From a virus, in IMG/VR virus record IMGVR_UViG_3300013947_000003, positions 32,923 through 96,922 of that record: a stretch of 64,000 nucleotides of DNA. One strand, 5' to 3'. Below, one piece after another: positions 1 to 64,000 of the stretch. The notes below the pieces were generated by a model, which was not told the origin of the DNA, did no database searches, and was given only the letters and a program-made list of their open reading frames with translations. Positions within the stretch are counted from its first letter, which is position 1. The number at the start of each line of letters is the position of its first letter. The translations under genes were made by a program, and so were the position numbers.

Positions 1-905
1 TTCTCCATTTCATACTGTTGAATTGCAGTATAAAGTTCTCCAGTGCTTTTATCTTTATGCACAGGCTTCATTATATTATCCAGAATCCTTTGTCTTGTAT
101 TTCTATCTACTTCTAAATCACCAAAAAATTTTTTATCTTCAAGTATAGATTTTTTAAGAGTTTCTATTTGTTCGGCCTATTCTCTTTTGCTCTTCTCGGC
201 TTCTTCTTCTGCATCTTTTACAACTTTATTATATGCAGTTTTATAAAAATCTATATTTCCTTGAAGAGCTTCTTTTGCATCTTCTATATCTGTTCCGCCC
301 TTTATAGATTTATCTACCTCTCTTTGAGCTTTATCCTAAGAATATCCTCTATTAATAAAATCCTAGTATATTAATTTCTTTCTTAAATCTTCACCTTGAT
401 CACTTTCTTCTTCTATAGCAGATTGCTAAATACTGTCTAAATAATTTAAAGCTCCTTCATATTGTTTAATAAGATCTGGTTCTACACCAACACCTAAAGC
501 TTTATTTATTCTTTTATATTTATCATCTAATTCTGAAGAAATCTTACTTTCAATAAGTGTTCTAAAATCTTCCGGTGTTTCTATTTTAGAAATGTCTTCT
601 TCATTAAGGTCAGGGAAAATACCATCATCTGCAAAAGCTTTAGCAATGGAAGAATAAAATTTAGGAGAAGTGCCCTTTTCAGATGTGGTACTTTCCTGTT
701 CCTTAATTGTATCTTCTTCACTACTTACGCTCTCTGGTGAATCCTCAAATAAATTATCTGGATTAACCTCAGTAGTATTTTCTTCTTTTTTCTCTTCTTC
801 AGGGGCTCCTTCTACAGTTTCTGTAGTATCCTCCTGTACATCTTCATTAAACAGGTTTTCTATTTCTGAACCTGTATAAATATTATCAAATGATAAACCT
901 TCCAT
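1..905 (-). CDS. Acidic, coiled-coil virion-module protein (scaffold-like?); its 3' end runs off the window; needs TAG=sense
   Basis: ATG at 905. Track ORF 426..905 ends in TAG. The same frame stays open to nt 1 if the TAGs at 426-428, 363-365, 336-338 and 177-179 are read through. D/E-rich N-terminus, then K/E-rich heptad-like sequence. Confidence 0.6.
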
Positions 906-935
906 TTATTCTCCTTTTATCTAGTTTATTCAATA

Positions 936-943
936 CAAAATTA
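936..943 (-). promoter_or_regulatory. Bacteroidota-type -7 promoter element (TAATTTTG on minus strand)
   Basis: Plus-strand caaaatta equals TAnnTTTG on the minus strand, about 31 nt upstream of the ATG at 905. Confidence 0.35.
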
Positions 944-995
944 CTATATTTTAGATTATATTACGCTGTAATTAATAAAACCTTAATAGTAATAT

Positions 996-1031
996 TAACA
1001 AAAATATAAGGTGGGGGAAATTCCCCACCTT
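996..1031 (-). terminator. Rho-independent terminator
   Basis: Hairpin aaggtgggg/ccccacctt followed on the minus strand by ttatatttttgtt. Confidence 0.5.
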
Positions 1032-1036
1032 ATACC

Positions 1037-1438
1037 TTAAAGTTCAACTATAGATTCTAGAGCATCTTCAAACATCTATTGTGCTAAATTACCACTAAGA
1101 TGTGCAGCTTCTTCTGAATAAGGATTAATATCCAAAGCTTCACATAAATGCATTTCTAAATGATTCTTTTCATGTACCAAAGTGTTTAAAAACTCTGCAA
1201 TGCTACTAGCTTTATGTATAACAATAATGGTCATGTGATTATCAAAGCTGGAAAAAGTTAATCCTGTATCTAATTCTGCTTTATCTAAATTTGTTTTTAC
1301 GGAGTCTATAGTACTCTAATTCTTGCTCATCTAAGAGACCTTTTTAATAATTTCGTTTCTCTACTAAAAATCCAAAACATAATAGATATTTACATCCCAG
1401 TTATATTTAGTCACTTTGAATTTTTGGCATAGTCCCAT
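1037..1438 (-). CDS. HExxH-motif protein (putative Zn-metallopeptidase-like), TAG-recoded
   Basis: ATG 1438 overlaps the upstream TAA (TAATG). The frame has five in-frame TAGs and ends in TAA at 1037-1039. Motif LVHEKNHLEMH. Confidence 0.5.
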
Positions 1439-1644
1439 TATTTATATTTCTCTTTAAGTTTCTCTAATTTTTCCTCAAAGCCTTCTCTATAGCTTCTTCC
1501 GCTTCTTTCTCCGTAACCTTCTAGTTCTCTCATGGCTTTTCTATAACCATGTTCACAGCCTTCTTTAAATGCTTTTTCCAGCATTTCTTCACTGTCACGA
1601 GATCTTTCATTATAATCTTCTGTTATATGATAAATTCTTCCCAT
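1438..1644 (-). CDS. Hypothetical 68-aa highly charged protein
   Basis: Intact track ORF with a TAA stop. Confidence 0.5.
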   Translation of the reverse strand: MGRIYHITEDYNERSRDSEEMLEKAFKEGCEHGYRKAMRELEGYGERSGRSYREGFEEKLEKLKEKYK

Positions 1645-1647
1645 AGT

Positions 1648-2155
1648 TTAATCAGTTTTAGTTTCTTTTTTAAGAGTGGCCATTACTTCTTTTATGCTTC
1701 CCATTAATTCAGACATTTGTTGTTTTAACGCATTAATCTCTTGCTTCTATTTTTTCTATTCAGCAAACTCAGGATTTAAAGTCTATAATAAACTTTCACA
1801 ATCCTATACTATTTTTTTTATGGTAGTCTACACTATTTAATATACCCAAACTTTTCTATCTTAATGAGTCCACTTCTGCATTCATAGCTTCTCTAGAAGT
1901 TGTTATTACCAATGCACCATTTACTGTACCCTAATCTGCAACATCTAGATTAGCCGGTAATTTCTATAAAGTAATATTATTATCATTTATTTTAACCACA
2001 ACATCTACAACCATTTCCTACGGATTTATAAAATTAGTTACTGGAAATTTTGGTTGTGGCTGTGATATGCTTACAACTTGTCCTACTTCTATATAAGGAG
2101 ACGCCTCTTTATGAAGTATATATATTTGACTATTAGCTCTTAAATTTTGAAACAT
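1648..2155 (-). CDS. Virion-module protein encoded in two frames that meet at an A8 run (frameshift, sequencing error or two genes)
   Basis: Frame a runs from ATG 2155 to TGA 1796-1798. Frame b is open from 1836 to TAA 1648-1650 and encodes a coiled coil with TAG=Q. The frames overlap at the run of eight A (1812-1819). Confidence 0.45.
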
Positions 2156-2167
2156 ATTAATATTTTA

Positions 2168-2590
2168 TTATGCCGTAGCCGACGTTATTACTAAAGTTAA
2201 AGAATCATTAATTGTGTAAGATAATGCACATCCACAATTAATATTAGAACCGTATTGTTCTCTTCCAACATTTGTTAGAGTTATTGTGGTAGGAACAGTA
2301 GTCTACCCCTAAAATGCAACTACATAATTCTCTGTAAATAGTTGTGTATGAGCATTACATCCGCATTTACCATCTTGTGTAACAACTGTTATTACTACTT
2401 TCACAGGAATAAAAACTGTTGTTTCTACCAACCTTGGAGTTCCAGTAGTGTAAACTACTGAAACCTACGGTTGAATAGTGGAATCAATACAAAATGGCCT
2501 ACATAACTTCTCTTTATAAGTCGCCATAAAAGACAACTGATTAGCAACAGGGGCTGTTGCTAATCCTACAGGTGATATTGTTACTGCCAT
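2168..2590 (-). CDS. Hypothetical 140-aa structural-module protein, TAG-recoded
   Basis: ATG 2590, three in-frame TAGs, TAA at 2168-2170. Confidence 0.5.
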
Positions 2591-2602
2591 AATGATTAAT
2601 TA

Positions 2603-3508
2603 TTAACAATTACAACTACCTGTAGTATAAGGATATCCATAATTATTGCAGCCACATCCATAAGGGTTTGGAACTACATAAGCAGGAGAGGGAGAAGGTC
2701 TAACCTAACTTACTATATTAGCAGTCTATGCCTACTGAGAAGCTGCCAAAGCAAGTTGACTATTTTCCTATCTAAGAGCATCAATCTTATTCTGCATCTC
2801 TCTCATTTCTAACTAACAGAACTTATCATTAATAAGAGTAGTTTGCGCGGCTATAGCATTCTTTAAATCACAAGTCTACTATGCAGTAGCATATGCTGTA
2901 GAAGAAAATCCTCTCTCAACAGAACTATTTACAAAATTTATAGCATTCTATAAAGTGTTAGTTTGATTTACATTAGATAACTGATTCTCATAATTAGTTT
3001 TAGTTATAGAATCCTAAATACTGCAGCAACATTGTGCTAATTGACTGCCTAACTGACAATTTCCGCTCTAGATAGAATTGATAATCTGTTGGCCTGTCAT
3101 ACCAACCTGACTACCCACAGTTTGTATAGAGGATTGTACTTGACCTATAGCAGTTTGAAGAGTATTTACATCACAATTTAAAGTAGTGGCAAGTTGACTT
3201 AAAGCCTAACCATTACCATTAATAGCCTGTAAAAGAACTTCTCTACCAAAATCATTATTCAATTGGTTAGGTATACCATCAGCATTTCCACCAAACATAC
3301 CATTACCTCTACCTCCCCAAAGCCAGAACATTATGATTACCCAAATCCACCACATGCCTCCACCTCCCCAAGCATCTTGGTTTTTAGAAGCATTTGTAAG
3401 CATTGCCATAAGATTAGGATCAATACCTTTATTCTGCATTAGACTAGCAATAAGAGCAGAGGAATCAAAGCCCTTATCTGCTGTATCAAAAACATAAGTT
3501 TTTTCCAT
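2603..3508 (-). CDS. 301-aa protein: Gly/Trp-rich hydrophobic segment, then Q/N/S/T-rich region with Cys clusters; TAG-recoded
   Basis: Translated codon by codon. Track ORF 3206..3508 ends in TAG. The frame continues through 10 more TAGs (3068, 3014, 2948, 2879, 2876, 2813, 2768, 2732, 2726, 2705) to TAA 2603-2605. Confidence 0.65.
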
Positions 3509-3549
3509 ATATAAATAATAAAGAAGTTAATAAATAAGTGATCACTGCA

Positions 3550-3557
3550 CAAAGGTA
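3550..3557 (-). promoter_or_regulatory. Bacteroidota-type -7 element (TACCTTTG on minus strand)
   Basis: Plus-strand caaaggta lies 42 nt upstream of ATG 3508. Confidence 0.35.
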
Positions 3558-3640
3558 TTATTTATATGTCAAAATTAACAACAATGCTAAACAACAAAGG
3601 CAATACTCTGTATTATAGAATATTGCCTTTAGTATTGTTT

Positions 3641-4051
3641 TTATAAATCCTTATACTCAGTTTTTGCATCAAAAGAAGGGCACGCTTTATTGGCATATTC
3701 TCTATGCCCGTGTATAGTAGCGTTAGGATATTTCTTTCTAAGATCTTTTATAAGTTTTATTAAAGAAGCTTTTTGAGCAGCTGTTCGAGTGTCTTTAGGT
3801 GTTTTACCGTCTTTCGCTACGCCTCCTATATAACATACTCCTATAGAATATGCATTATGACCTGAGCAATGGGCTCCTATTCTTTCTATTGGTCTACCTG
3901 TATGTATAGAGCCATCTCTATAAACAACATAATGGTAACCAATATCACTAAATCCTCTTTGTTTATGCCACTACCTTATTTGATTTACTGTATAATCCTT
4001 TCCTTCAGGAGTAGCAGAACAGTGTATTATAATTTCATTTATTATTCTCAT
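3641..4051 (-). CDS. N-acetylmuramoyl-L-alanine amidase, T7-lysozyme/PGRP (Amidase_2) type endolysin
   Basis: Translation MRIINEIIIHCSATPEG..NQIR[TAG]WHKQRGFSDIGYHYVV..GAHCSGHN..SIGVCYIGG..HGHREYANKACPSFD. It is collinear with T7 lysozyme motifs. One in-frame TAG at 3971-3973. Confidence 0.85.
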
Positions 4052-4337
4052 ATTTATTTATATATAAATCTAAATCCTTTTTATACCAAAATAATTCTTT
4101 AAAGCCCGCTTGTTTCATTCCTTTAGGCAATCTTCCTTGTCTAACATAATTATCAAAAGAAGCCCTACTGATATTTAAATATTGGTAAGCCTAATATTTA
4201 CTCAGTCTTTCTTGTTTATCAGAAAGAACTCTTAAAGATTTTAGTATTTGTTCTTCTTCCTCTTTTGTTAAATCACAACTTCCTTTATCTATATTTTCTA
4301 TAAAACCTTTTAATAAATGTCGGATTATTTTTAACAT
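4035..4337 (-). CDS. Small HTH DNA-binding protein (Xis/AlpA/MerR-like)
   Basis: ATG 4337, in-frame TAG 4191-4193, TGA 4035-4037. Segment AYQYLNISRASFDNYVRQGRLPKG..LFWYKKDLD resembles excisionase-type HTH domains. Confidence 0.45.
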
Positions 4338-4698
4338 AACTATATAATAAATAAAATAACATAATTCCTGTAATTATAATATGAAAAACAAATAGATGAA
4401 AATCCGAAATATTAATTCCTATATGATAATCAATTAAGTTTAAAGTTTCTATAACAAATATATACCATAAAAATATTTTATGATATGTACAAAATCTAAA
4501 AACAATTGCAGATACATATATAAATACCCAGGGTAAAAAAGACATTCCACCAAGACAACTTAACAGCCATGTATCTATATCAAAATAAGCAAATAAAGTG
4601 TTGAAGAAATAACATAAAGCTCCTAATATTGGAATTAGCTTTAGTAATTTCAACAACACTTTATATAAAATCTTATTTAAGTTTTCCTCCTTTAGCAT
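4285..4698 (-). CDS. Multi-pass membrane protein (holin candidate by position)
   Basis: Intact 137-aa ORF with about four hydrophobic segments, in the amidase neighbourhood. Confidence 0.5.
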   Translation of the reverse strand: MLKEENLNKILYKVLLKLLKLIPILGALCYFFNTLFAYFDIDTWLLSCLGGMSFLPWVFIYVSAIVFRFCTYHKIFLWYIFVIETLNLIDYHIGINISDFHLFVFHIIITGIMLFYLLYSYVKNNPTFIKRFYRKYR

Positions 4699-4736
4699 AC
4701 TATCCTTTCTTTAGTCCTGCTTTCGGAGTTAGAGGC

Positions 4737-5129
4737 TTAGGCCTTCTTGTCTTTGTTTTTGTTTTTGCCATTTTCATCTTTTTTAGGCTAGCTCATAATT
4801 CTAAGCTAGCAGGTTAAATCAGTACATATTTGAGTAGTTAACTATATTACCGCAGTTTTAAGATCTTCAAGTTCTCTCTTTAAATTATCATTATCCTATC
4901 TTAAAGTGACAATTTCAATACGAAGTTCCTTGTTTTCCTATAGTGCAGTATCCAATCTTTCTTTATTGTCGTTACTTAACTTTTCATAAAACTCTAAAGA
5001 TGCTTCCATATTACTTATTACTGAATTATCTACTTCACTATTATATTTCTTTCTTGCTAAAAACCATGATAACCAGCTTCCTGCTGTAGTAGAAACTACT
5101 CCAATTACTGCTATAATAATTTCAGTCAT
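4737..5129 (-). CDS. N-terminal TM plus coiled-coil protein (i-spanin- or holin-like), TAG-recoded
   Basis: Track ORF 4938..5129 ends in TAG. The frame continues through further TAGs to TAA 4737-4739. Confidence 0.5.
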
Positions 5130-5133
5130 CGGA

Positions 5134-5520
5134 TTAAGATTTTTTTAGTTTATACCATGTTATTGCGGCACCTCCTATTATAAATGCAGCACCTAACCAC
5201 ATTAATAACTTTTGATACCATTTAATTTTATTAACTTCTTTCACTTCAGTTTTTGTTATATATATCGGCGTTTCAATAGAGTCTTTCTGTATCATAGTAT
5301 CAGTATGATTTAGATATTTATAAATGTACTTATACTTATATAAGTACAAGGTATCACCATTTACAAATCTGTCAATACTATCATGAACATATATACTGTC
5401 TATTTTTAATGTATTTATATATTCTGTTTTTACTTTTTCTATAGGAACTTCTTTTTCTATTATTTTAGTAGACCCACAAGCAACTAGAAAAACAAGAATA
5501 ATTATTAATAAATATCTCAT
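5134..5520 (-). CDS. Lipoprotein with C-terminal TM segment (unimolecular spanin candidate)
   Basis: Signal peptide plus lipobox LVAC|G. C-terminal hydrophobic LLMWLGAAFIIGGAAITW. TAA stop. Confidence 0.55.
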   Translation of the reverse strand: MRYLLIIILVFLVACGSTKIIEKEVPIEKVKTEYINTLKIDSIYVHDSIDRFVNGDTLYLYKYKYIYKYLNHTDTMIQKDSIETPIYITKTEVKEVNKIKWYQKLLMWLGAAFIIGGAAITWYKLKKS

Positions 5521-7082
5521 AGTTTGTTTTTTGTATACATTATCTAATGTAACGTTCCATTATATACATTAGGTTCCACAATAATTATATTGTCTTTATG
5601 GGTTACCATACTTCCGTTGCCTCCAAGGGGACTGCTAGACTTTCCTGTAGGAATTCCTTTAGATATGTTTTTAAATGTCATTTTAGATGCTTTAGTATTA
5701 AACATTGCAGTATTTAAGTTTTCACACTCAAAATCTATTGTACCTAAATAAACAGATCCGTCTTCATTTCCATTTTCAAAACATCTATTATAATAACAAC
5801 ACACCAGCTTTATACTTTGTTCATCAGACAAATAATTTTTAACATAAGTTATTCTAGGTAATGCTCCCTATAAATGTCCCCCTGCAGTATTTATTTTAAT
5901 AGGAACTAAAGGTTGATCTGCATTACCATTAATACCGTCAGTAATAGTACTGCATAAAGGATCTATAATATTTCCTCCAAATCCTAACCAAAACAATTTA
6001 TTATACTAGTTTCCGACATTACCCACTGCACGTATTACATAAAATATATGTCCAGATTCTGTGATTGTAAAATCAGGTTCAGAAACTAAAGTAGTATTAC
6101 CATGTAATATAGAGGGCGTAATTGTAGCATCCCATTCTACTCCTGAAAAATCAGCTAGTTTCATTCCATCAAAAGTCTCAAAATCTTCAGTATGAACCAA
6201 ATATATAGATCTCCAACAACCATCTGCAGAAAAATTTAATCTGTTTCTTGCGTAAGCCATAAAGTAATACAGCTTATTAAATTTGATTACTTTATTAGTG
6301 GGTATAACATGCATGTTATTGATAACAAGGTCTAAATCTTTAGATGTCCAAGTTTTACCACCATCTATAGATTTATATAATGTTGTTATTTGGTCGCTTG
6401 TAAACTTTAGAGATATTATAACTTCGTTAAGCTCTTTATCTGTAAAATTAACACAGACGCAGTCTCCAAACATACTTGCAGCAGCATTGGGAACCTCATT
6501 ATCATATATAAGTTCTTCAGTAGTATTTTCGTATATTTTATAAACTCGGTCTCTATAATTAGTTATAGAGTATAAAGTAGCTTTTTCCTGTCTTTCAAGT
6601 CTATACAAATACTGTTTATCATAGTATTGGTCTTCTCCTACTATATATTCCCAAGAAGGACTCCAAGGAGTTGTCTATTTAGTAGCATCAACTTTATTAA
6701 AATACTTTATATCTTCTTCAATCTTTTCATTAATACTATCAATATCTTCTGCTTGTTTTTCAACTTTAGAAGTAAGAGCCTTAATAGCAGTGTTTAGAGT
6801 ATTTAATTTATTATCAGTATTTGTTTTCCAAACATTTAATTCCTATATGGCTGCTTTATTGTCTGAAATGTCTTTTTCAATAGTTTGAAAATGAAAAATA
6901 GTATCTTGAAGGATATTATCCTTAATTGTGCTAAGATTAACTCTTACATTTTTAGCATTCTACACTATTACTATAGAGTCCTCATCTTTAATAGAACTTT
7001 TTAAATCAAACTCTAAATCTTTAACTCCTTTAGAATTTAACCATTTTTCTATTTTCTCTAATTCTAATCTTCCTAAAAACAT
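5517..7082 (-). CDS. Tail fibre/spike-like protein: coiled-coil N-terminus plus BNR/Asp-box beta-propeller (sialidase-like) domain; TAG-recoded
   Basis: ATG 7082 (TAATG overlap). One frame links the 7082 start with track ORFs 6006..6608 and 5544..5831 through TAGs. It ends at TGA 5517-5519, which overlaps the next ATG (ATGA). Asp-box SIDGGKTW. Confidence 0.65.
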
Positions 7083-7795
7083 TATTCTACAGCTATTAAT
7101 TGTATTTTTATTTTTCGACTACCATTATTAATAATACTACTAGTATCAGTCATTTTGGGAATGGTTACTTGCAAATATGCTTTAGTTCCAGCAGTTGCAA
7201 CTCCTTCTGAGTTTTTCCAACTTGAAGTAATAACATCGCTTTTATATACGCGTTCTCTGTCCTAAGTAAGTACATCCCCCACTTCATGTTTACACCATAT
7301 TACTATAGGTTCTAAAAAATAGTCTTGTATTCCTATATAAGGAGCACTATTCCAATAAATACTATACCCATTAAATTCTTTTATATCAGACTAGTAATCA
7401 TACAAACCATTATTCAACATAGGTACCGCCACAGTTTTAGAACTTCCTACTTTTAGGTCTTTAAAAAAGTTTCTAATACCAAGAGTAAATACAGGCATTG
7501 TTAGTTGATCATATTTAGAAGCATAACTAGCACAATCTCTTTTTGATATATAATTCGCATTAATACCTTTTACCTCAGTTTCTAAAGATGATACACTATA
7601 CACAAAGTCATCCATATTTCCTACAGGGGACCAGCTACCGTCTATATAATGGTAGATTATATCATTATCAGAATGTAACTCATAAGATTCTTCATCCTAA
7701 TCGCTTTTTATTTTCTGTTTACCTGCTTTTATCCAAAGTACATTTGTTTGTTTGGGAGGATTGGCAGAATATATAATATTTTCGTACTTTATCAT
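7082..7795 (-). CDS. Tail-fibre-like protein, paralogous N-terminus to 7798-8580; TAG-recoded
   Basis: MIKYENIIYSANPPKQTNVLWIKAGK..YHYIDGSWSPV parallels the 8580 gene. The frame contains ORF 7391..7615. TAA at 7082-7084. Confidence 0.6.
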
Positions 7796-7797
7796 AA

Positions 7798-10982: not shown

Positions 10983-11007
10983 ATATCTTTCAACTTTAAA
11001 TTTTATA

Positions 11008-11015
11008 CAAAGGTA
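11008..11015 (-). promoter_or_regulatory. Bacteroidota-type -7 element (TACCTTTG on minus strand)
   Basis: 26 nt upstream of the portal ATG, in the only gap between terL and the portal gene. Confidence 0.4.
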
Positions 11016-14093: not shown

Positions 14094-14103
14094 AAATAAT
14101 AAA

Positions 14104-53641: not shown

Positions 53642-53658
53642 TTGAACCATTATAAATA

Positions 53659-53707
53659 GGGGGGTAAGTTGCGGCATATGCTGCTTCTTGCCCCCTTATT
53701 TTTTTTA
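53659..53707 (+). terminator. Rho-independent terminator closing the early block
   Basis: gggggtaag...cttgccccc hairpin followed by ttatttttttt. Confidence 0.7.
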
Positions 53708-53760
53708 TAAGTAAGATATACATTTATTTAGAATTTATTGTGTTATAAGAAATTAATTAG

Positions 53761-53768
53761 TAATTTTG
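53761..53768 (+). promoter_or_regulatory. Bacteroidota-type -7 element TAATTTTG
   Basis: 23 nt upstream of the RNAP gene ATG at 53791. Confidence 0.45.
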
Positions 53769-53790
53769 TACTATTAAACAAAATATAAAT

Positions 53791-56700
53791 ATGGGAAAGT
53801 GTTATATAACATCTGACTTAGATAGAGCTGTAGCTAAAGCCGCCGGTAATTTCATGGGGAAAGGAAGTACAGCGCGGTACTTTGCATATATGCGAGGGCT
53901 ATATGATGAGAAAAATGGTGATTAGAATTGGAAAGCCATGAGTGTTGAAGAAGTAAAAAATCTTTTAACAAAATTTGAAGGAGATTTAAGAAAAGAAGAT
54001 ACTAGAAAAATAAAAGCGTCTGGTACAAATGCTTCTGATATGTTTGTACAACTTCAATAGGAAATTCCCGATGCAGTAATTAGAGAAACTAGAATTAGCT
54101 GGATTAGTCACCTGTTTAGTGAAACTGTAGATAGAATAGCAGAAAATGACTCTAGGTCTTTGGGTCTGGATAGAAAATTTATTATTAAAGGAACTATTGA
54201 CGAAGAAGGTAATACTATTTTTGGATAGAGTTACATATTTAATGCTATGTATAGAATACTTGGATCAAAATTTACCAGTGCTTGGGATACATATAAAAGC
54301 ACTGATTCAAATATAACAGAAGAATAGAAAAAACAAGCATTATATAAAGCACAGCAAATACGTTTAGTTTTAAGAAATTGGCCAGCATTTGTAACTATTG
54401 CTAGGCTTAGAATTAGAGATATTGAAGGAATAAAGTTAGGAGCCTTTAATGATTTTACAGCTGATGCAGATGAAGGTAATTTTGAAATAGAGAATTTACA
54501 AGAAAAAATTGATATAGAAGAAACTTCTATTAGAGAAGGGTGGTAGGAAATAGCAGAATCTATGTCAGCATATGCTTCAATAGGCGCAGAAGTTAGAGAA
54601 CTACTAGCTTCTATACCACAACGTAATTAGTTTGGAGAGGTGGAAAAAGATGATTTAGGCAACACTAAGTATTTAGATCCTTTATAGGTACACCAGACTT
54701 TATTAGATGCAGTAAGAGGTTCTACTTCTGAAGCAAGTATGCTTAGAAAGCTTACAAAATATGTTAATTCTCAGTATAAGGAAAGTCATAGTAAAACAGG
54801 AGCAAATAGAAGAAGATATTGGTTAGCCCCTATATTAGATAAGTTGACTTTATCTGTAGAAGATGATGATGGTGGAATTACTATATTTGAAACTACTTAG
54901 GATTATCTAGATGCACTATCGGAAGAGCAAAAAAAACTAGCAGTAGCAATTGCTTAGGGAGATTAGGAAAACATAGAAATACTAACTGACAATATAGAAG
55001 GTATGAAAGAATCTGTAGAAAGAGCAGCAAGGTTAAGAAGTAAAGTTTTTGCCGATTTAAAGCGCAATTTTCAACCTTTATATGTAGTACAGGAAGTTTT
55101 TGAGAAAGGGGTACATTATTTAAAAACTACATGTTTAAATGATAAAAAAGGTTTCAGTTTTTCAGAATAGGCACAAGCAAATCTAAAGAGAGGGCGTTCT
55201 GAAAAAGATGAAACTAACCCTCTTATTTCTAAAAGAGGAAGTAATGCACTTCCATAGGTTAGCAAAGAAAATGTAGATGCACTTGCAAAATTTATAGAAA
55301 ACAAATTCATTAAGGGTGAAAATGTAGATCTTATTAGTGGTAAATCATCATCGTGGTTTATGACAAAATCTGAGGATGAAAGCACTAAATAGGAAAAAAT
55401 ATCTGCAGTTCAGTATATTGGCAAGACTCTTGGATTTAATATTTCAAACGAAGCTGCTACTAAGATTGTAACAAATTCTAGATATGCAAAGAGATTTCAA
55501 ACTGCCATGTAGAACCTTCATAAATATGGATTAACCCATTCTTAGATGGCCAAACAATTTAAAAATGGAGGAAGTTTAAATATTATTGACTTTTTAAATG
55601 TTAAACCGGGAGGTTCTGTAAGTGAAAAAGGTGCAGTTACCGAAGCAATCGAGGTAATAGGTGATGTAATATCTGCAGTAACAACTACCTAGGAAGTACG
55701 AGTTTCCTATAAAGATAAAAAAGGTAAAAATACAATGTTATCCAGTGATGTATTGCCTTCCTATTTAGGAGATTTTGTAGAAGACATTAAGGAATTTGTT
55801 GATAATAAAGATACTGCAGGTCTTAGAAGTTTCCTTGAAGAGAGGTACTTTAATAACTGTCCAATGTTTGCTGTAAAAGATGAAAATGGAAACTGGAAAA
55901 TCCATAATATATGGTTAAGAGAATTATATAATTCAGATCTTTCTGAAGACGGAAATTTTGCAGAAATATTTGGCTCATTTAGACTTTTAGGGGACTCTAA
56001 AAATACAGGCGCTAAAAGGTTTGAAAACTATACTAAAAAACGTCATGCCTGGTCAATGCTGGAGTTGTTTTTAGCCCCAAGAAAACTTGCAGGCACAAAA
56101 GATAACAAAAAGGATTATGCTAATTATCCTTTATTTGTTTTAGGAGATAGTGGTGTTTGTAAAAATATAACTGCAAAATATTATACAAGAGATACAGTAA
56201 TGAAAGAGCTTGTGAGTCTAGCAAATACTGAAGTTGAACGTGCTAGATTGGTTTTAGAAATGAACCAAACATGTGAATTAAATGGTTGGGAAAAGCTGGA
56301 AACTTTTAGTGATGAAAATGCAGTATTAAAATTTACTTCTTTGCCCTTTTTAAATGATTACTTAGAGCTGAGAAAAGTTTAGGAAGTCAACCCCATAACC
56401 CAGGAGACAAAAACTGTTATAAAAGTATTTGATAAATTATCAGAAGAAGAAAAAGACTAGGGTAAAAAGGCTCAGGTTGTAAATGATGTTTATATAGAAA
56501 CTTGCATAAGACAAGCCATTGATAGGGATTTTGAAAATTTCTATAGACAGATAAGTGGAAATGAGGCTTTGAAATCAGATTCAGATATGGGGCTTACAAA
56601 TCTAAACTCTGGTAATAATGTTCCCTTATATTTAAGTGGGTTTTTGACAAAAAAGGAAATAGCAGATGCGCCAGAGAAAAGTAAAGAAGAAATGCAGGCA

Positions 56701-58581
56701 TTACTAAAAGAAAGGGTAAAAGATTTCTATGCTAATTATAAATTAGCAACAGCTTGTCAATTATAGATGTTTACTATAGATGCAGGTTTTTATGGTAATA
56801 CTGAAAATTTACAAAAAAGGTATAAAGAACTGCATGCTCCTGGAACAAAGGTATCAGATGATGCATTAGATTGGAAACTCGATAAACTTGCTATAGAAAA
56901 CGGCGAAGAGCGTGTAGTATACTTTGATGACATAAGTATAAGTGCAGATGAAATGGATCCCGGATTTATGGATATTATTAAAGCTAGATTTGGAACTAGC
57001 GATCCAAGTGTTGTAGATGCCTATACTAAGAATACTTTAACTGATGGCCAGGGTTATAGAACTCTAGAAAGCTATAGAAAAGTTATGATTGCTGCAGGTA
57101 AATGGAACGACTATCTAGAGCAGACTTATGATAAGATACAAGTCATCAGAGACAGAATGAGAGCAACAGGAAAAGAGCAGTTAGAGCCTGAAGAAATAAC
57201 ATAGTTGACGTAGTTGTTCGTAATATTCCAGCCATTAAAACCTTATTTATATACAATTGAAGATATTGGTGTAAGTAACGGTAGAATGCTTAAAGTTCCT
57301 GTACAACATAAATATGCAGAAGTTATTATTATTCCTGAACTTTGTGTCCCCGGCTCTAACCTTCGCGCTTTGGGAGAAGCTATGGAAGAAAATAATATAG
57401 ATGTAGTTTGTTCTACTAAATGTGTTAAAGTGGGATCATTTGGATCTATGGCTTTAGACTTTAAAACAAATGATAAAGGGCAGTTTGTAGATAAATTTGA
57501 TGATATTATTAAAGGTATAGACGAAAATGGAAATATAATAGACTCTCCTAATGTAACAAGAACACAGCAACGTGCTTATATAAAGAAGTATGGAGAAGAG
57601 GGATTACAAAGGATAACTCCTTAGACTATTAAAGATTCTATGCAAGTAATTAGAGATTCACAAGGCGCTTATGTTCATAAATTAAAATATCGTGATTATA
57701 GAATACAAACTAATGTTCCTGCACATATAAATGCCTCTAATCTATTTGGCACTTAGATTAGAAAAATTATAATGACAGGAATTGATAAAAATGGTAACTA
57801 TAGTAGTTATTTAGGAAATTCAGAAAAAGTAAATTTAGGAGACGGTTTAGTAGATCTTAATGGTAATAGGCTTATATAGTTCTACAATCAATTAATTGTT
57901 GCAAATGTTTTAGAAGGCTATCGTGATTTTGAAAAAGCTATAGATTCTATGGATAAAGTAAGTAAGTCTCTAATTTAGAATGTTATAGCTAATAGTAGAG
58001 AAGATGAAGCTAATATAATGGCGTATTGTCTTACAGGTGACGGTTAGTTTTTAGTTCCCTTATATGAGCTAGGAATAGAACATAATACATCACAAGCCCT
58101 AATTTCTTTATTTAAAAAAATGGTTAATAAATAGAGAATATAGGGAGGCGCATTAGTTTAGGCATCTGCTTGGGGAATAACTAAAATTGAAGAGGGATCT
58201 AAAGATTATGGCGATCTAGACTGGCATACTGTTGAAGAAGGTAAAAATGGTAATATAGTCTATGGAGATTGTGAAATACCATTTGATTTTAAATGGACAG
58301 ATCAGTTCGGAAGAGAACATTAGTTAGATTTTAATGACTATTGTAATCCTGATGGTACTTTTAAAATGTCGGGAAGAAAACTTAATATAGGAGGCATTAT
58401 TATAGATGAAACTTTAATAGAAAAAGACTATCCCGGAATACTTGATATAGTATCTTATAGAATACCTACAGAATCTCAATACTCTATGATGCGTCTTAGA
58501 GTGAAAAGATGTACATTACCAACACAAGGAGGTGTTATCAGAGTTCCTGCACAAGGCACTACAACTGCAGGATTTGACTTT
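53791..58581 (+). CDS. Giant virion-type (crAss gp66-like) RNA polymerase, exon 1 (1597 codons), TAG-recoded
   Basis: A single frame is open from ATG 53791 when TAG is sense (first TAG at 53923-53925, dozens follow). Track ORFs 55735, 56569, 56767, 57214 and 58366 all lie in this frame. Ends ..TTTAGFDF. Confidence 0.75.
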
Positions 58582-59467
58582 AAGCTATATTGAAGTCATT
58601 AAATTGTGTTAATTGCTGGGAACCCTTATAAAAGTCATCAATTTATATGGAAATCAGCAGCCAAGCTAGTTGAAATACTAGAAGGTTCAACGACTAAATA
58701 AATCATAGAAATAACATACGTTAATCGTTATGAAAAGTAAATTAAATAAAGATAGTAGAAATTTATTAATAGGATTATTATTAGGAGATGGTACAATATC
58801 TAATAATAATGTGTTTAAAATAGCCCATTCAGAGAAGCAAAAAGATTATTTAGAATGGAAAATAAAGCAGCTTAAAAATCATGGAATACGAAATAATGGC
58901 GTTAAAACTTATATTAAAAAGGGTGGATATAATTCAGGAGTTCCTGTATATTACACACAGCTAAATATAATACCATTTATTAAAGTGTTAAGACGTGTAT
59001 TTTATAAAGGCAAGAAAATTATTGGAAATAGGAAGTTATTAAATAGATTAAATGCTTTAGGTATTGCCGTTTGGTATATGGATGATGGGCATATAAATAT
59101 TAGAAAGTACAATGGAAAACCTTGTGGATTTTATATAAAAATCTCCACATGTGAACCTAAAGAAGAGGTACAAATAATAATAGACTATTTCAAAGAAGTT
59201 TGGGGAATAAATTTCTACATGTTTCATGAAGGTCATAAAGAGAATAGCTATTCTTTATGTTGTGGTGCTAAAGAGGGGATTAAATTTATAGAAATTGTTA
59301 AACCTTATGTACAGCAAGTTCCTTCAATGATATATAAAATAAATTATGATTTATCTCAAAGAAAAAGAAGTATTTGAGAGTACCCTTAAATGGGGAAATG
59401 CACAACATGCTACTAGCATGAAGATATAGTCTACTCTTTACAAAATAAATAATGTAAAGTATATAGG
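58582..59467 (+). mobile_element. Group I intron (886 nt) carrying a LAGLIDADG homing endonuclease
   Basis: U at 58581 precedes the intron and G at 59467 ends it. Joining gives GFDF-DIDKLY, that is the motif DFDID. An in-frame TGA occurs 3 codons into the intron. Confidence 0.7.
58730..59377 (+). CDS. LAGLIDADG homing endonuclease
   Basis: LLIGLLLGDGTIS and AVWYMDDGHI double motifs. Confidence 0.8.
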   Translation: MKSKLNKDSRNLLIGLLLGDGTISNNNVFKIAHSEKQKDYLEWKIKQLKNHGIRNNGVKTYIKKGGYNSGVPVYYTQLNIIPFIKVLRRVFYKGKKIIGNRKLLNRLNALGIAVWYMDDGHINIRKYNGKPCGFYIKISTCEPKEEVQIIIDYFKEVWGINFYMFHEGHKENSYSLCCGAKEGIKFIEIVKPYVQQVPSMIYKINYDLSQRKRSI

Positions 59468-62452
59468 GATATTGACAAATTATATTTAATGCGTAAATAG
59501 TTTTCTTTTGTATAGCGTTATGAAAGTGAAGATGAAGATATAACTGAAGAAGAAAAAAACACAGTATGGGCTAAAATTTATAATGAAAACCCGTCAATTA
59601 AAAATCATTTAGAACAAACAAAAAAATAGTGGGAAGAAAATCCCGCAAATAAAAATAAGTCTCACAAGAAGTCATTAAATTCCTTTTGGGATGAAAGCGA
59701 GTATTTAAAGAATAATTATGATAAGAATGAAATTTTTAGTAATGCATTATTGGACTTAATAAATCAAGGAGTTCTTGCCCCATTAGAAAAAATAGTAAAC
59801 ATAACTCGTAAACAAACTTATAAGTATAACCTTAATAAAAGGGTTATGGATAGTTATGATGAAACTGGTAAGTTAATAAGAGGTAATAATAGAATTGCTA
59901 GGAACAATATGCTTTTAGATCTTATTATAAAGCGTCTTGAAGATCCTGAAACTCTTGATGAAAGATTTCAGCCGGGTGAGTTTAAAAATGCAAAGCAGTC
60001 TGCTAAAATAATGCGTATATTAACACTGTCAGATAAATCATTTGAAGATTATGTACTTAATGGGAAAAAAATGAACTTTTCTGAAATAGAAAATAGTGCT
60101 AACAAAATTGCAGACCCAAAACCTAACTATGATTATACTGACCCCTTGACATTATTAACTTATAATGAGTAGAATTAGGTTGCAGGAAAATTAATTGGTA
60201 TATTTGCAAACCAAAATGTAAACTATGCTATTTCTACAATGTTATACAAATATAATCTTAATAGCCCTATAGCTTTTGGAGATCATATGCAGGGATTGTC
60301 AGATTTAATACATGCTCCTTCTGCTAAAAAAACTTGTGCCGAACTTCTTTCTGCATCTGTAGATGCTGTTAAAGATCCTGTATTGAATTATTTAAATCTC
60401 AATGAGATTACTGCTAATGCTGCAGCAGTATTAGCTAGATTGGGATATTCTACTACAGAAATAGGGTTACTATTAAATTAGCCGGTAATTAAAGATCTGT
60501 GCTAGTTTGCATTAAATAGTGGTAGAAGTACTAGTAGTGCTTTAAACCATTATATGAAGAAATATGCAGGAATAAAGCTTGTTGGTAATGAGTCTAAAAC
60601 ATATTTAACTTCTAATGCATTGGCAAATAACATAGTTATAAATAGTGCTAGAAATTCTGTAAAAGCTGAAGTTAGAAATGCTGCAGATTTAAAAACCCAA
60701 AATTATGATTTTCAAAGAGGATAGGCTGCAGTACTATAGTTATTTTCTGAAATTTTAGGAGTTACTAAAGAAGTTTCAGACTTTGTAACAAATACTAAAT
60801 TTACTGCTGCTAATGCTGTTTCTGTGTCATTTGGTAGCATGATTGCTCAATAGTTAAAAGTTAAAAGATATATAGAGGATTAGGCAAATGCAGTATTAGA
60901 CTAGAAAAACGGCAAATCCTCATTAAAAACATCTATGATAGTCTCTGAAATGCACGGTGATTCAAAAAGATTTATAGGAATGCCAAATATAAATGTTGAT
61001 GATTGGAGTTATTTGAGATCCATCGATTTTAACCCCTTTGCATACGAACAATGTATGTTTGATATGAATAGAAGAGCATTAGAAAAAATGGCAGACTACT
61101 TTCCTTATAGAAGTCCACTATATAAAGAAACAACAGACTACTTTGATGAAATGGCTAGCTATCCTATGGATGAAGATACTGTAAATGATATTATACATGA
61201 TATAATGGTGTATAAAATGGGGTCAATGCCTGGTAATAGATTTAATAAAAACACTCTTATAAAAACCAATGATGGACAAATTATGACATAGGAACAATAC
61301 TATAAATATGTGTTTCCTGATATTATAATGAATTCATCAGAGTGGGAAACATCTTTTGATGAAAAGATAACAAATGCTTTAAAGTTACTAAATAACTATG
61401 GTATTTTATCAGTTGAGTCTCATAGTGAATGGTATACTAAAGATCGTATACCAACACGAAGAACTTGGTATACCTTTGGTTTAAGAGGGTCTGCTAATCT
61501 AGACTTTGATAAAAAACAAATAACAGCTTTATTTGAAGAACTTTATGATGATCCTAAAACAAGATGGTTTATTGAAGACTTATATATGTATGACTTTTTC
61601 TAGGGAGAAAGGGGGTTTGGTCCCAAAAGTTTCACATCTTACTTGCCGCAGTCTATTACTGCTAATATAACTATGTATATTGATGGTAATGGTAACCCTG
61701 TAACATATAGAGATTGGTTAATTAAACATAAAAACGAAGGATTTGGAATAGAAGGTAATGCTAAAAATAATATAATAACTTATTATATTAGAAGGCATAG
61801 TGACAACAGACGATTTGTAAAAGAGCTCTACTCTAATGACACCTATTATAACTATTTTAAAAACAAAATTAAGAATGAACAAGGTGTTATTTCCTAGAGT
61901 ATAGAGGTTTCTACAGACAAAGAATTTGAAAGTGTTGATAATAAAGGACGATCTGAAGTTATAGACAATCCATTATATAATGCATAGAAAAATGCTTTTG
62001 TCCCTGCTTTTACTATAAATATAAATGGAACTGATTATTTGTATATATGTAAAAGTAACATAAGTGATTTTAATAAACCTAATGGGCCATTAATGGAATA
62101 TGAAAGATTTACCCCATTAAAGCCCGGATTTACTGAATATAATATAGGAACAACTTCTGAAGAAACAGAAAAAGAAAAAGCAGTAAACCAAGAAAATTTA
62201 ATTGGAGTATTTGATGAATCAGATATGAAGAAGCCGGTTACATATGCATCACTATATGAATAGGCTAAAAAAGAAACACAAGAAAAATCATATGAAGATG
62301 CAATAGTAGAAAAAATGGACCCGACACTTAGGAATATATATGAAACTTCTAGTGAAGAAGGTAAACGTGAAATTTTAAATGATATTAAAAATAATAAAAA
62401 GTGCTATGCAATGAATGATGATGGCACTATTAGTAAAACTGAACTTTGTTAA
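59468..62452 (+). CDS. Virion-type RNA polymerase, exon 2 (994 codons), TAG-recoded
   Basis: Starts DIDKLYLMRK[TAG]FSFV[TAG]RYESEDED. Track ORFs 59750, 60239, 60935, 61310, 61643 and 62039 are all in this frame. TAA at 62450-62452. Confidence 0.75.
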
Positions 62453-62454
62453 TT

Positions 62455-64000
62455 ATGGGATTTTGTATAATTAAACCTAATAAACACCAATTATGGGATG
62501 AAATTGCAGAAGTAGTTGGAAATGAAAACAGAGGGCTTATAAAATATTGGTATAATGTTGCTCACGATAATAGGTTTTTAGAAGCTTCTGCTAATGATAT
62601 AGTCTTAAATGAGGAGGGGGAACCCACGTTCTCCTCCTTATTAAAGGCTGCTAATACAACAGAATATAATGAAAAAATAAAAGAAACCCTTAATAAAAAA
62701 ATAGGTGCAGGAGAGATGACATATAAAGAGGCTTGTGAAAAGCTGTTTAACTTTAATAAGAACTCTAATTATAATGATAAATATCTAGCAACTATTCAAA
62801 GAACTGAGGGAGGGAAAGTGCGTTTATTCATAACAGAAAAGACAAACAAAACAACTAAAGACCTGTACAAACAATTAAAAAATGGTTCTATAGCAGAAAG
62901 ATTGTAGGCAAAACTAAATGAATGTGGTGTTACCTATGAATTTCTTGAAAATGCTAAATTTGAAGGTAGATATAGTACCATGAATAGTGAAAGGGTTCTT
63001 AATGGATTAAATGCTTTAATATCTATTAGAGATGGTCATATTGTAGATGAAACTTTAGCTGAAGAGGCAGGCCACTTTGTTATAGGCTCTTTAAGAGACT
63101 CTGCACTGGTAAAAAGACTTGAAAATGCATTAAATACCGATGTTATTAAAGACATTTTTGGAGAAGAATTAGAAAATAAAAATTTCGGTGCTTAGCCAAG
63201 AAGAGAGGTTGCAGGTTATTTAGTTGGATAGGCATTGTTAAATAAATTAACCCATAATAATGTTTGGAATAAACTTGCTAATAGAATCGCATACATATCT
63301 AAAAAAATATTTGCAAAGATTACTAGAAATGATACTTTAAAACTTAAGAATGAAGCTATTAATAATGCTAACTAGTTAGCAAAAAGCTTCTTAAATGATG
63401 CAGAATTTGAAGGAACTGTAGAGGAAGCATTAGAAACTAAAGAAACTTTTTATCAGGCAGATAAACATGCAATTGAACGTACATTTGAAGGTGTTAGAAA
63501 TACCTTAATGAAGCTTAGAGATGTTCTATCTATATATGATAAAGAAGCGGCATCTGCCGTTAATGGTATAATTAATGCCGCAGCTAAAGATTATTCAAAT
63601 ATTGATATGATTATGCGTCAACAGGCAACTAATGGACTATTTATGTTTATAGATGGTTTAATGGGGCAAATAGCCCCTATTAGGAAACAAATGGCTGTTG
63701 TTAGATAGCATATGGAAAGTAATTCCGATTACTGGAATAATTTTGTTTAGGATGGTAAAACATTAAGACAATATAGAGATACTGTAAAAGCTGTTGTTGA
63801 GTGCATTGACATTATAAATAAATATGTATAGACTTTATCTCCTGAATCTAAAGATTATAATTAGAGAACTGTATTTATGGATGAGGGGGGAGGAGTTTTA
63901 AAGGAAACTACCCAATACTTAAAGAACATTGCCTTCGAACTTCAAAATCTTATTAAAGGAGAAAACACTAATTTAGAAAATGAAGTGTTTGACTTAACTA
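62455..64000 (+). CDS. Second large TAG-recoded late protein, 3' end beyond the window
   Basis: ATG at 62455. Track ORFs 62446, 62980 and 63508 share its frame and are joined by TAGs. Confidence 0.6.

Follow-up and report, generated by a model that had tools for sequence, protein, structure and literature searches.

A 64,000-nucleotide stretch of the virus record IMGVR_UViG_3300013947_000003 (hereafter, the window) raises the question of how the codon TAG can interrupt genes towards both of its ends and yet terminate genes in between. According to the sequence-only reading, the genetic code is module-specific: TAG would be read as sense in two late arms but would stop translation in the central early block. 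Sequence comparison places the window among the crAss-like gut phages (Crassvirales), close to Pamirivirus cr116_1 and the Asinivirinae, and it covers about two thirds of such a genome. The closest record in the phage collection that we searched is cr116_1, with 74% nucleotide identity over the large terminase (TerL) and portal genes; its genome matches the window gene by gene in order and uses the standard code. Besides cr116_1, we compared the window with the relatives L020 and L021 and with one 88%-identical relative.

The left arm (positions 1 to 18353, minus strand) carries a tRNA array, regulators, a GroES-like gene, and genes for TerL, portal, tail-fibre-like, lysis, and head-associated proteins; it is the start of a minus-strand block syntenic with cr116_1. 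Coding density on the coding strand climbed in this arm from 0.44 under code 11 to 0.94 with TAG as sense; the right arm (53764 to 64000, plus strand) went from 0.45 to 0.97, while the centre remained nearly equal under both codes (0.87 versus 0.88). When TGA or TAA was made sense instead, as a control, the arms reached only 0.45 to 0.56. In ORF maps, the short frames seen in the arms under code 11 give way to long ones once TAG is read as sense. Across 7,771 late codons we counted 143 in-frame TAG and no TAA or TGA (92 of the TAGs lie in the left arm), a rate of 18.4 per 1000 codons; about 40% of the glutamine codons of late genes are written TAG. No late gene in either arm terminates in TAG; as the earlier reading had it, they end in TAA or TGA. 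TAG is thus confirmed as a sense codon in the late genes.

One could object that the TAGs are genuine stops in a defective phage whose late genes have decayed into pseudogenes, or that they are assembly or sequencing artefacts. The arms do look fragmented under code 11, and one late gene, the gp_24155 homolog (1648 to 2164), is split by a frame change at an A8 run. Yet the stop codons interrupting late genes are TAG only, their sites match glutamine (see below), and the same pattern, at partly other positions, recurs in three independent related assemblies, which leaves this explanation hardly credible at all. The segments flanking the TAGs belong to the same proteins: the profile phrog_6681 matches TerL (11062 to 13299, minus strand; 745 aa, 21 TAG) as one stretch from residue 95 to 716 (E=1e-98), phrog_6547 likewise matches the portal protein (8577 to 10982, minus strand; 801 aa, 18 TAG) from 6 to 799 (E=4e-134), each spanning all TAGs, and the read-through late proteins can be aligned over their whole length with complete homologs. 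The claim that every late interruption is a TAG holds for stop codons and has two exceptions of another kind, the frame change just mentioned and an intron.

This intron lies in a giant gene for a virion RNA-polymerase-like protein (RNAP) on the plus strand. Exon 1 (53791 to 58581; 1597 codons, 30 TAG) ends in ...GFDF, and exon 2 (59468 to 62452) adds 994 codons and 17 TAG; joined, they yield exactly the product of 2591 aa that had been predicted, with 47 TAG. Between them, an 886-nt group I intron (58582 to 59467, plus strand) splits the DFDID motif. Its Rfam Intron_gpI match (36.6 bits, E=2e-7) is below the gathering score of 50. The 5' exon finishes in U and the intron in G. Precisely this segment is missing from L021, in which the exons are contiguous (junction 20034|20035), and cr116_1 has an insertion at the same site that is 78% identical to it in nucleotides. 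The intron encodes a LAGLIDADG endonuclease (58730 to 59377, plus strand; 215 codons; Pfam LAGLIDADG_2, E=3.7e-26) with 80% amino acid identity to cr116_1 gp_24129; it has seven CAA/CAG codons and no TAG. Given 0.056 to 0.125 TAA plus TGA per codon in the other frames of the RNAP gene, the natural logarithm of the probability that 2591 codons remain free of both by chance is -150 or lower. The next gene of the recoded virion block (62455 to 64000, plus strand) has 8 TAG in 515 codons and runs off the window. As a matter of arithmetic, 47 TAGs would leave 9% complete RNAP chains at 95% read-through per codon and 62% at 99%; suppression must therefore be nearly complete.

Which residue does TAG encode? 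In an alignment of 120 portal homologs, glutamine occupies 1214 of 2160 cells at TAG columns (56%, against a background of 6%); of the 18 TAG columns, 7 are invariant for it, and in 11 it is the most frequent residue. Opposite standard-code cr116_1, 50 of 97 TAG sites align with glutamine (background 4.4%), including 14 of 21 in TerL. Closer relatives show the codons themselves: the 88%-identical relative has TAG at 15 sites, CAA at 9, and CAG at 6, and L021 has TAG at 14, CAA at 8, and CAG at 2 of the RNAP sites. On these alignments, which supply the residue assignment that the earlier reading called for, TAG in the late genes is shown to correspond to glutamine.

A suppressor tRNA for this codon had been announced within the window, and it is there: a 74-nt tRNA with the anticodon CUA (16173 to 16246, minus strand), found by ARAGORN and by Rfam (tRNA, 52.4 bits), which folds into a canonical, intron-free cloverleaf. 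ARAGORN prints it as tRNA-Pyl. Pyrrolysine, tyrosine, or glutamate at TAG could draw on that label, on the rank of glutamate as second commonest residue at TAG columns, and on one site, in the first minus-strand gene (17589 to 18353), where homologs have tyrosine. However, glutamine fills 52 to 56% of TAG-aligned cells against 4 to 6% background, with any other residue at 10% or less, and close relatives replace TAG by CAA or CAG. The architecture of tRNA-Pyl is atypical. In contrast, the D loop (GG), T loop (TTCGA), and 4-nt variable region of the tRNA found here are canonical, so the label reflects the anticodon only; in addition, none of 20 left-proximal and central proteins scanned matches a pyl-related Pfam family. 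We therefore regard another amino acid as exceedingly unlikely.

Most likely, the tRNA is charged with glutamine by the host glutaminyl-tRNA synthetase (GlnRS). It has the 5' acceptor start TGCC and the discriminator A73 in common with the tRNA-Gln(TTG) of cr116_1. The identity set of Escherichia coli GlnRS includes G3-C70 and G73; unlike it, the acceptor stem here has C3-G70 and A73. In its acceptor and T arms, the tRNA is nearly identical to the tRNA(CTA) that Lak megaphages and 10 further IMG/VR viral contigs carry. [quoted passage not shown] The most novel by-product of this analysis lies beyond the window: a close relative and other phages have an amber-suppressor tRNA gene whose anticodon is interrupted by a group-I-like intron of about 1 kb.

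Alternatively, the host may be responsible, through a lack of release factor 1 (RF1) or an amber suppressor of its own, with the phage tRNA as an accessory. The match between recoding and detectable suppressor tRNAs in phages is imperfect (Yutin et al., PMC7886860), and we found no gene for a release factor, an RF1 inhibitor, or an aminoacyl-tRNA synthetase among the window proteins scanned. Yet the phage retains a well-formed tRNA(CUA), as does its close relative, even intron-interrupted, and both the central avoidance of TAG and the TAG terminators described below would be pointless in a host that reads TAG as sense. Moreover, the nearest cultured relative in the collection infects Bacteroides cellulosilyticus, and Bacteroides use the standard code. 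A host origin of the recoding is, in our view, very unlikely.

The central block (19400 to 53641, plus strand) holds early, replication, and nucleotide-metabolism genes, identified from Pfam and the cr116_1 annotation; among them are an HKD nuclease, DnaB, primase, AAA_24, ThiF/JAB, an exonuclease, NrdD, dUTPase, PolA, and ThyX. In agreement with the sequence-only reading, its 60 genes lack internal TAG throughout 10,049 codons; the late-gene rate would predict about 185. They terminate in TAA (32), TGA (22), and TAG (6). Five of these TAG stops had been listed before (22979, 24159, 27896, 40026, and 53639); the sixth is at 20597.

Would these codons not be glutamine as well, if code 15 applied genome-wide from the start of infection, with the tRNA made very early or constitutively? 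The central "stops" would then be glutamines followed by short tails, and the absence of TAG would have no regulatory meaning. Public gene calls of near-identical contigs do use code 15 throughout, which takes the product of 27509 to 27898 to 142 aa. Read-through would add only 0 to 22 codons to the six genes, and TAA directly backs up TAG at 40026 and 42177. The first of these pairs (40026 to 40031, plus strand; TAGTAATG) ends the PD-(D/E)XK exonuclease gene, where L021 has TGG TGA. However, an absence of TAG from 10,049 codons contrasts with 18.4 per 1000 in late genes, and the relatives treat these sites as stops. At 22979 to 22981 (plus strand, an early gene), the aligned codon in L020 is TGA, not CAA or CAG. 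The TAG at 27896 to 27898 (plus strand) lies in an 8-nt overlap, ATGACTAG, with the next gene, and the standard-code homolog in cr116_1 ends at the same position; the 12 codons beyond it are 50% identical between relatives, versus 86% for the body of the gene. Lastly, the TAG at 53639 to 53641, which closes the series of plus-strand standard-code genes, is conserved in L021 and followed there by an in-frame TAA six codons on; the frame beyond it is not conserved, and in the window a hairpin follows. Judged against relatives, then, the central genes are shown to fit the standard code, with TAGs that behave as stops, and a constant code 15 is very unlikely. The partition between late and central genes is also conserved in relatives: in L021, the RNAP gene has 37 TAG, and PolA and NrdD have none.

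Both code boundaries fall inside the window, as had been claimed, and coincide with boundaries of transcription units. The left one, next to a divergent intergenic region (18.4 to 19.4 kb), is judged to be rightly placed at 18353 because the first minus-strand gene (17589 to 18353), with one TAG at codon 202, needs read-through to gain the C-terminus common to its nine homologs (243 to 261 aa). The TAG column has tyrosine in eight of the nine and glutamine in one, and the stop codon of the gene overlaps the next start as ATGA. At the plus-strand boundary, the gap that separates the RNAP gene from the standard-code gene before it contains a terminator-like hairpin with a U8 run behind it (53654 to 53713; MFE -33.4 kcal/mol, z = -5.7); none of 200 shuffles folded equally well, and the hairpin was not among the calls of a simple terminator scan.

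TAG use is uneven within the left arm. Four regulator genes (14526 to 15641, minus strand), including VpsT-like and Zn-finger transcription factor genes homologous to cr116_1 gp_24046-24048, contain nine CAA/CAG and no TAG; together with the genes at 16251 to 17592, the count is 20 to 0. These regulator genes form a standard-code-compatible island inside the arm. The highest preference for TAG is found in a holin/lysis-regulator homolog (4737 to 5129, minus strand; homologous to cr116_1 gp_24163), where it accounts for 5 of 6 glutamine codons. A preference of lysis genes for TAG has been reported (Borges et al., bioRxiv 10.1101/2021.08.26.457843).

Recoding of late genes from TAG to glutamine, with suppressor tRNAs, was already known in crAss-like phages (Yutin 2021, PMC7886860; Borges, bioRxiv 10.1101/2021.08.26.457843; Peters 2022, PMC9523058), and the partial-genome recoding here is a real, clear, but well-documented feature of this phage group. 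The window shares with those phages the order, the reassignment, its confinement to late, structural, and lysis genes, the phage tRNA(CUA), and lysis genes that favour TAG; their code switching over short phylogenetic distances is matched by standard-code cr116_1. Nothing essential differs apart from the lineage itself, about 74% identical in nucleotides over TerL and portal to its nearest record in the collection searched. The TAG-free regulator island and the plus-strand boundary hairpin are not spelled out in the crAss-like recoding papers. The genome also divides into contiguous blocks, one that fits code 11 and others that need code 15, a situation handled by Mgcod (bioRxiv 10.1101/2022.06.29.495998), which is an annotation concept rather than a mechanism. 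Gene prediction under one code throughout gives wrong annotations here, and public calls (P0121) over-extend the early gene noted above to 142 aa under code 15.

Other systems resemble it in part. Lak megaphages, which infect Prevotella and recode TAG, have the similar tRNA noted above; they are unrelated, about 540 kb in size, and some encode RF2, whereas the window has no detected release-factor gene. In the TGA-recoded Jade phages (Borges et al., 10.1101/2021.08.26.457843), a suppressor tRNA also heads the recoded gene set, but within a "code change module" whose tRNA, TrpRS, and RF1 genes keep the standard code and immediately precede the lysis genes; the window has a tRNA only, and one gene upstream of it already holds a TAG. 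Theta (HDV-like) ribozymes lie beside suppressor tRNAs of Bacteroidota gut phages (Kienbeck et al. 2024, PMC10879173), whereas none is detectable in the window: the gap to the ATG is 13 nt, and no Rfam ribozyme matched at E<=0.5.

The partition between late arms and centre thus stands, but "module-specific code" is better put as a temporal, tRNA-dependent switch because a ribosome cannot know which module a message comes from. We consider it very probable that this crAss-like phage undergoes a tRNA-driven, time-dependent change of code, with TAG read as glutamine in late genes and the early genes kept in standard code. Several observations count against it: the tRNA lies inside the recoded arm, near-complete suppression is needed, the acceptor stem departs from the E. 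coli GlnRS set, an active suppressor would lengthen six early genes by 0 to 22 codons, and the terminator scan missed the hairpin. Under the temporal switch, the early and replication genes (19.4 to 53.6 kb) would be translatable from the start, since they have no internal TAG. The terminase, portal, tail fibres, lysis proteins, and virion-packaged RNAP would yield no full-length protein in an uninfected or early standard-code cell, because about 40% of late glutamine codons are TAG. As the phage-encoded tRNA accumulated in the infected cell, charged with glutamine by the host synthetase, UAG would come to be decoded as glutamine, and host RF1 would presumably be out-competed during late decoding. 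Gene function and the literature suggest this timing, and the recoding may serve to keep late and lysis proteins from being made too soon.

Homology of the portal and large terminase (TerL) proteins, together with gene order, places the window within the Crassvirales, near the Steigviridae/Asinivirinae. The TerL-portal stretch shares ~74% nucleotide identity with uncultured crAss-like phages. Its top match is cr116_1 (MT774389), a standard-code relative classified as Crassvirales, Steigviridae, Asinivirinae, Pamirivirus, and a weaker match is found to a cultured Kolpuevirus infecting Bacteroides cellulosilyticus, the nearest cultured relative. Candidate hosts for the window phage are Bacteroides, Prevotella or Segatella. 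Amino acid identity to cr116_1 is 66% for the portal and 71% for TerL, and PF16510 is present in several portal homologs. The gene order of cr116_1, with divergent early/replication and structural blocks, is kept gene by gene throughout the window, whose G+C content is 31%. The minus-strand block contains, in order, a tRNA array, small regulators and a GroES-like gene, followed by TerL, portal, tail-fibre-like and lysis genes. The plus-strand block opens with small early genes, continues with replication and nucleotide-metabolism genes (HKD nuclease, DnaB, AAA_24, primase, ThiF/JAB, PD-(D/E)XK exonuclease, NrdD, dUTPase, PolA and ThyX), and ends in a giant virion-protein block that includes the gene for a giant putative virion RNA polymerase (RNAP). 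The window TerL (745 aa) has no intein, and that of the related phage contig L002 (6667-9921; 1084 aa) carries one, with Hom_end/Hint domains.

A sequence-only reading had proposed that the late genes in both arms of the window are broken into short open reading frames (ORFs) under the standard code and become long genes when TAG is read through. Stop-to-stop maps drawn with the stops of code 11 or with TAA and TGA only reproduced this description. Measured as the share of the coding strand covered by ORFs with an ATG start and 60 codons or more, coding density rose from 0.44 to 0.94 in the left arm (1-18353, minus strand) and from 0.45 to 0.97 in the right arm (53764-64000, plus strand) when TAG was taken as sense, and it was unchanged in the centre (19400-53650; 0.87 versus 0.88). 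Control codes with TGA or TAA as sense brought arm coverage to only 0.45-0.56. The curated late genes contain 143 in-frame TAG codons in 7,771 codons (18.4 per 1000, or ~40% of Gln codons) and no in-frame TAA or TGA, and none of them ends in TAG. Since TAA and TGA together occur off-frame at 0.056-0.125 per codon, an open frame of 2591 codons could not arise by chance. Alternatively, the segments on either side of the TAGs could be unrelated, separate proteins, but no such pattern was seen: the portal (phrog_6547, E=4e-134) and TerL (phrog_6681, E=1e-98) each match a PHROG profile in a single stretch over all their TAGs, and a TAG-masked portal retrieved thousands of full-length homologs of ~800 aa from the database.

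TAG is unevenly used among the late genes. It writes 5 of 6 Gln codons in the holin-like gene, in line with the preference for TAG that Borges et al. (bioRxiv 10.1101/2021.08.26.457843) reported in lysis genes, and 21 of 33 in TerL. Two zones of the left arm, 14526-15641 (minus strand; VpsT-like and zinc-finger regulator genes) and 16251-17592, together hold 20 CAA/CAG codons and no TAG, an outcome with a probability of ~4e-5 by our own arithmetic if 40% of Gln codons were TAG. In the same arm, the homolog of cr116_1 gp_24155 (168 aa) at 1648-2164 (minus strand) is spread over two frames, which change within an ORF overlap at 1796-1836 containing an A8 run (CATAAAAAAAATAG); either programmed slippage or an error in the assembly could account for this.

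We then asked which residue TAG specifies. Across 120 portal homologs, Gln occupies 1214 of 2160 cells in the TAG columns (56%, against a background of 6%); it is invariant at 7 of the 18 columns and the commonest residue at 11. The portal and TerL genes of cr116_1 have no in-frame TAG, and in alignments with cr116_1 orthologs Gln is found at 50 of 97 TAG sites (background, 4.4%), with Glu next at 8 sites. In L002 (ENA, 96 kb, 88% identical to the window), the positions of window TAGs are occupied by TAG (15), CAA (9) or CAG (6); in the RNAP gene of L021, a related IMG/VR contig, the counts are 14, 8 and 2. Because TAG interchanges with CAA and CAG in relatives and aligns with Gln, it behaves as a synonymous Gln codon in the late genes.

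The central early and replication genes (19400-53641, plus strand) present a different picture. No internal TAG occurs in these 60 genes (10,049 codons), which terminate in TAA (32), TGA (22) or TAG (6). Five of the TAG terminators, at 22979-22981, 24159-24161, 27896-27898, 40026-40028 and 53639-53641, had been named in the sequence-only reading and are all present; the sixth lies at 20597. Relatives support these stops, and the block is compatible with the standard code throughout. L020, another related phage contig, has TGA in place of the TAG at 22979. The product of 27509-27898 ends level with its cr116_1 homolog, and the 12 codons past its TAG are 50% identical between relatives, compared with 86% for the body of the gene. 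The TAG at 40026 is directly followed by TAA, and L021 reads TGG TGA there. TAGTAA occurs twice at the ends of early genes, which could be taken for designed tandem back-up stops; yet read-through past the six TAGs would extend for 0, 2, 4, 12, 16 and 22 codons, near the chance mean of ~16 codons that we estimate from base composition (TAA+TGA, ~0.06 per codon). Public gene calls on near-identical contigs (proteins P0121, P0123 and P0124) apply code 15, in which TAG is read as Gln, throughout; they carry the protein at 27509-27937 (plus strand) past its TAG stop and so give it 142 rather than 129 aa. This is the annotation problem that Mgcod addresses (bioRxiv 10.1101/2022.06.29.495998). Adjacent genes of the standard-code block, at 35328-37174 (plus strand), match Prok-JAB (weakly, E=3.6e-4) and the E1-like ThiF family (E=2.8e-17) and form a predicted ubiquitin-like-system pair.

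At the plus-strand code boundary, the frame past the TAG at 53639 is not conserved, since L021 has a TAA six codons on. This TAG is followed by a hairpin and then U8 (53654-53713, plus strand; -33.4 kcal/mol, z = -5.7); thus, the code boundary is likely a transcription-unit boundary as well. The left boundary had also been placed correctly: the first minus-strand gene (17589-18353) has a single TAG as its codon 202, past which nine homologs continue for 50 residues to a common C terminus; at the TAG column, eight of them have Tyr and one has Gln. The Bacteroidetes promoter consensus TTTG-N17-23-TAnnTTTG was not enriched (5 matches versus 4.75 expected), and scans for sigma-70 promoters and terminators gave no informative signal at the code boundaries.

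A 74-nt tRNA gene with a CTA anticodon (tRNA(CUA)) was found at 16173-16246 (minus strand) by both ARAGORN and Rfam. It lies near the head of the minus-strand block, at the position of the cr116_1 tRNA array, and shares U1, G2, C3, C4 and the discriminator A73 with the cr116_1 tRNA-Gln(TTG). The “Pyl” label given by ARAGORN comes from the anticodon only; the tRNA folds into a canonical cloverleaf whose D loop contains GG, whose T loop is TTCGA and whose variable region spans 4 nt. This elongator cloverleaf, and Gln as the aligned residue, do not support pyrrolysine decoding of UAG. A Pfam scan of 20 central and left-proximal proteins returned no pyl-related family, release factor or aminoacyl-tRNA synthetase. 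Each of the three small genes directly 3' of the tRNA contains one TAG, and in L002 these TAGs are conserved or swapped for CAA/CAG. [quoted passage not shown] The window tRNA differs from them, as no Rfam ribozyme match was found beside it at E<=0.5 and only 13 nt separate its 3' end from the ATG of the next ORF.

Lak megaphages, and 10 further IMG/VR contigs whose lengths are recorded as 11-550 kb, have tRNA(CTA) genes in which the acceptor stem and T arm of this tRNA (TGCCCTA ... CTCAGTTCGANTCTGAGTGGGGC) are nearly unchanged; the occurrences include L005 (312-386) and L008-L018. The data do not support recent acquisition from a Bacteroidales host: among 185,579 bacterial and archaeal genomes, the T-arm and acceptor motif had only two matches, both in unrelated tRNAs (tRNA-Phe in Erysipelothrix and tRNA-Trp in a Peribacteria MAG) and none in Bacteroidales. 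This distribution suggests a suppressor tRNA family common to different phages. Two other tRNA-like genes in the window, at 16500-16564 (minus strand) and 26442-26509 (plus strand), exceed the gathering score of the Rfam tRNA model (45.6 and 44.9 bits) but are not called by ARAGORN; they have good acceptor, D and T arms and a shortened or irregular anticodon arm. The L002 ortholog of the former differs precisely in the anticodon loop and is called “tRNA-Stop(tta)” (67 nt) by ARAGORN.

The giant RNAP-like gene is split by an 886-nt element at 58582-59467 (plus strand) that we assign to the group I introns on its core, splice-site bases, endonuclease ORF and precise absence in L021. Rfam Intron_gpI matches it with E=2e-7, below the gathering score; U closes the 5' exon and G closes the intron, which encodes a LAGLIDADG endonuclease (Pfam LAGLIDADG_2, E=3.7e-26). 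Joining 53791-58581 to 59468-62452 restores ...GFDFDIDKLYLMRK..., and intron-less L021 encodes this same peptide without a break, its junction falling on precisely the bases predicted. The joined exons comprise 2591 codons, precisely the length proposed for the RNAP from the sequence alone, of which 47 are TAG. DFDID, of the DxDxD form expected for the catalytic motif of such polymerases, lies in the product where the two exons meet, and the gene is in synteny with gp_24128/24130 of cr116_1. Searches of the exons and the next gene against Pfam, and of 700 aa around DFDID against PDB sequences, gave no match, so the RNAP-like label rests on the motif and synteny. The intron ORF (215 codons) has no TAG and is therefore compatible with both codes. 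The intron is 78% identical at the nucleotide level to cr116_1 47506-48342, inserted at the same DFDxD site, and the ORF is 80% identical in amino acids, whereas the flanking exons share only 24-30% amino acid identity; the cr116_1 annotation treats the pieces as three genes (gp_24128, gp_24129 and gp_24130). On this comparison, the intron has evidently been passed between phages that use different codes. Another interrupted gene is nrdD, for the anaerobic ribonucleotide reductase: its two pieces (40031-40933 and 42350-43504) flank an ORF at 41003-42115 that encodes an HNH/HTH (NUMOD-like) endonuclease of 370 aa, and in L021 nrdD is an uninterrupted ORF of 683 aa. A whole-window Rfam search had no match at this interruption, which is probably a second mobile intron.

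Introns were found in the suppressor tRNA genes of a close relative and of other phages as well. The window gene is an intron-less allele. Its L002 ortholog breaks after ...GGTCTCT and resumes at AAAACC, with a 1001-nt insertion whose ORF of ~272 aa shows an HNH-like motif by eye; the joined halves form a 72-nt tRNA(cta). The same intron occupies the same site, between anticodon U35 and A36, in the viral contigs L025 and L028; splicing of the three precursors is predicted to give a tRNA(CUA) of 72-73 nt. Split loci lie at 2717-3790 in L002, 1259-2335 in L025 and 2806-3875 in L028, and also in L016, L022 and L023/L024, with insertions of 984-1001 nt and a TAG-free ORF of ~275 aa. The insertions appear group-I-like, as judged from a 3' core with a P3/P7 pseudoknot, P8 and P9, in which five of six P3 pairs are compensatory. 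At these loci, Rfam gave no Intron_gpI score and ARAGORN made no call in intron mode; the tRNA intron was established by joining the halves and by covariation. Our literature search found no description of an intron-split amber-suppressor tRNA. Genes split in this way may account for a share of the recoded genomes, roughly 60%, that lack a detected suppressor.

Taken together, TAG as the only in-frame stop triplet, its match to Gln, the tRNA(CUA) and the standard-code early genes point to a phage with late-gene TAG-to-Gln recoding. TAG-recoded crAss-like phages of ~105 kb were described by Borges et al., who proposed a temporal switch, and proteomics has demonstrated full-length proteins with Gln at TAG in two crAss-like phages (Peters et al., PMC9523058). 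Since Yutin, Borges and Peters already describe TAG recoding, our finding for the window is correct but not new. The best-supported reading is the published temporal-switch model. In it, the standard code of the host would serve for the early genes; UAG would then become Gln through the phage tRNA(CUA), to which host GlnRS presumably attaches the amino acid, and the late, lysis and virion-cargo genes would thereby become translatable. When the switch occurs, which enzyme charges the tRNA and what becomes of RF1 are elements that we infer. An ORF with 47 TAGs would yield 9% complete chains if each codon were read through at 95%, and 62% at 99%; hence, read-through at each TAG has to approach 100%, and the RNAP would need at least 98%. 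The window offers no explanation of how host RF1 might be neutralised, and the 47-TAG ORF, in needing near-complete suppression, restates the RF1 question rather than answering it.

The window thus offers a compact, fully resolved dual-code genome, in which both boundaries, the suppressor tRNA, a regulator island and an intron ORF, the latter two TAG-free, lie on one contig. Annotation with a single code fails both ways: code 11 shatters the late genes, and genome-wide code 15 over-extends the early ones. A more tentative proposal, to which we give rather less than an even chance, is that the suppressor tRNA is a mobile “code-switch cassette” and a target of intron homing, such that the code change would need self-splicing in intron-bearing phages. 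The presence of the same stem and T arm in unrelated TAG-recoded phages is the basis for thinking that the cassette may be mobile rather than a lineage-specific invention. Under this proposal, RNA self-splicing would add a level of control not described before in intron-bearing phages, including the 88%-identical relative of the window. The intron-split suppressor tRNAs, if the observation holds, could matter more than the recoding itself.
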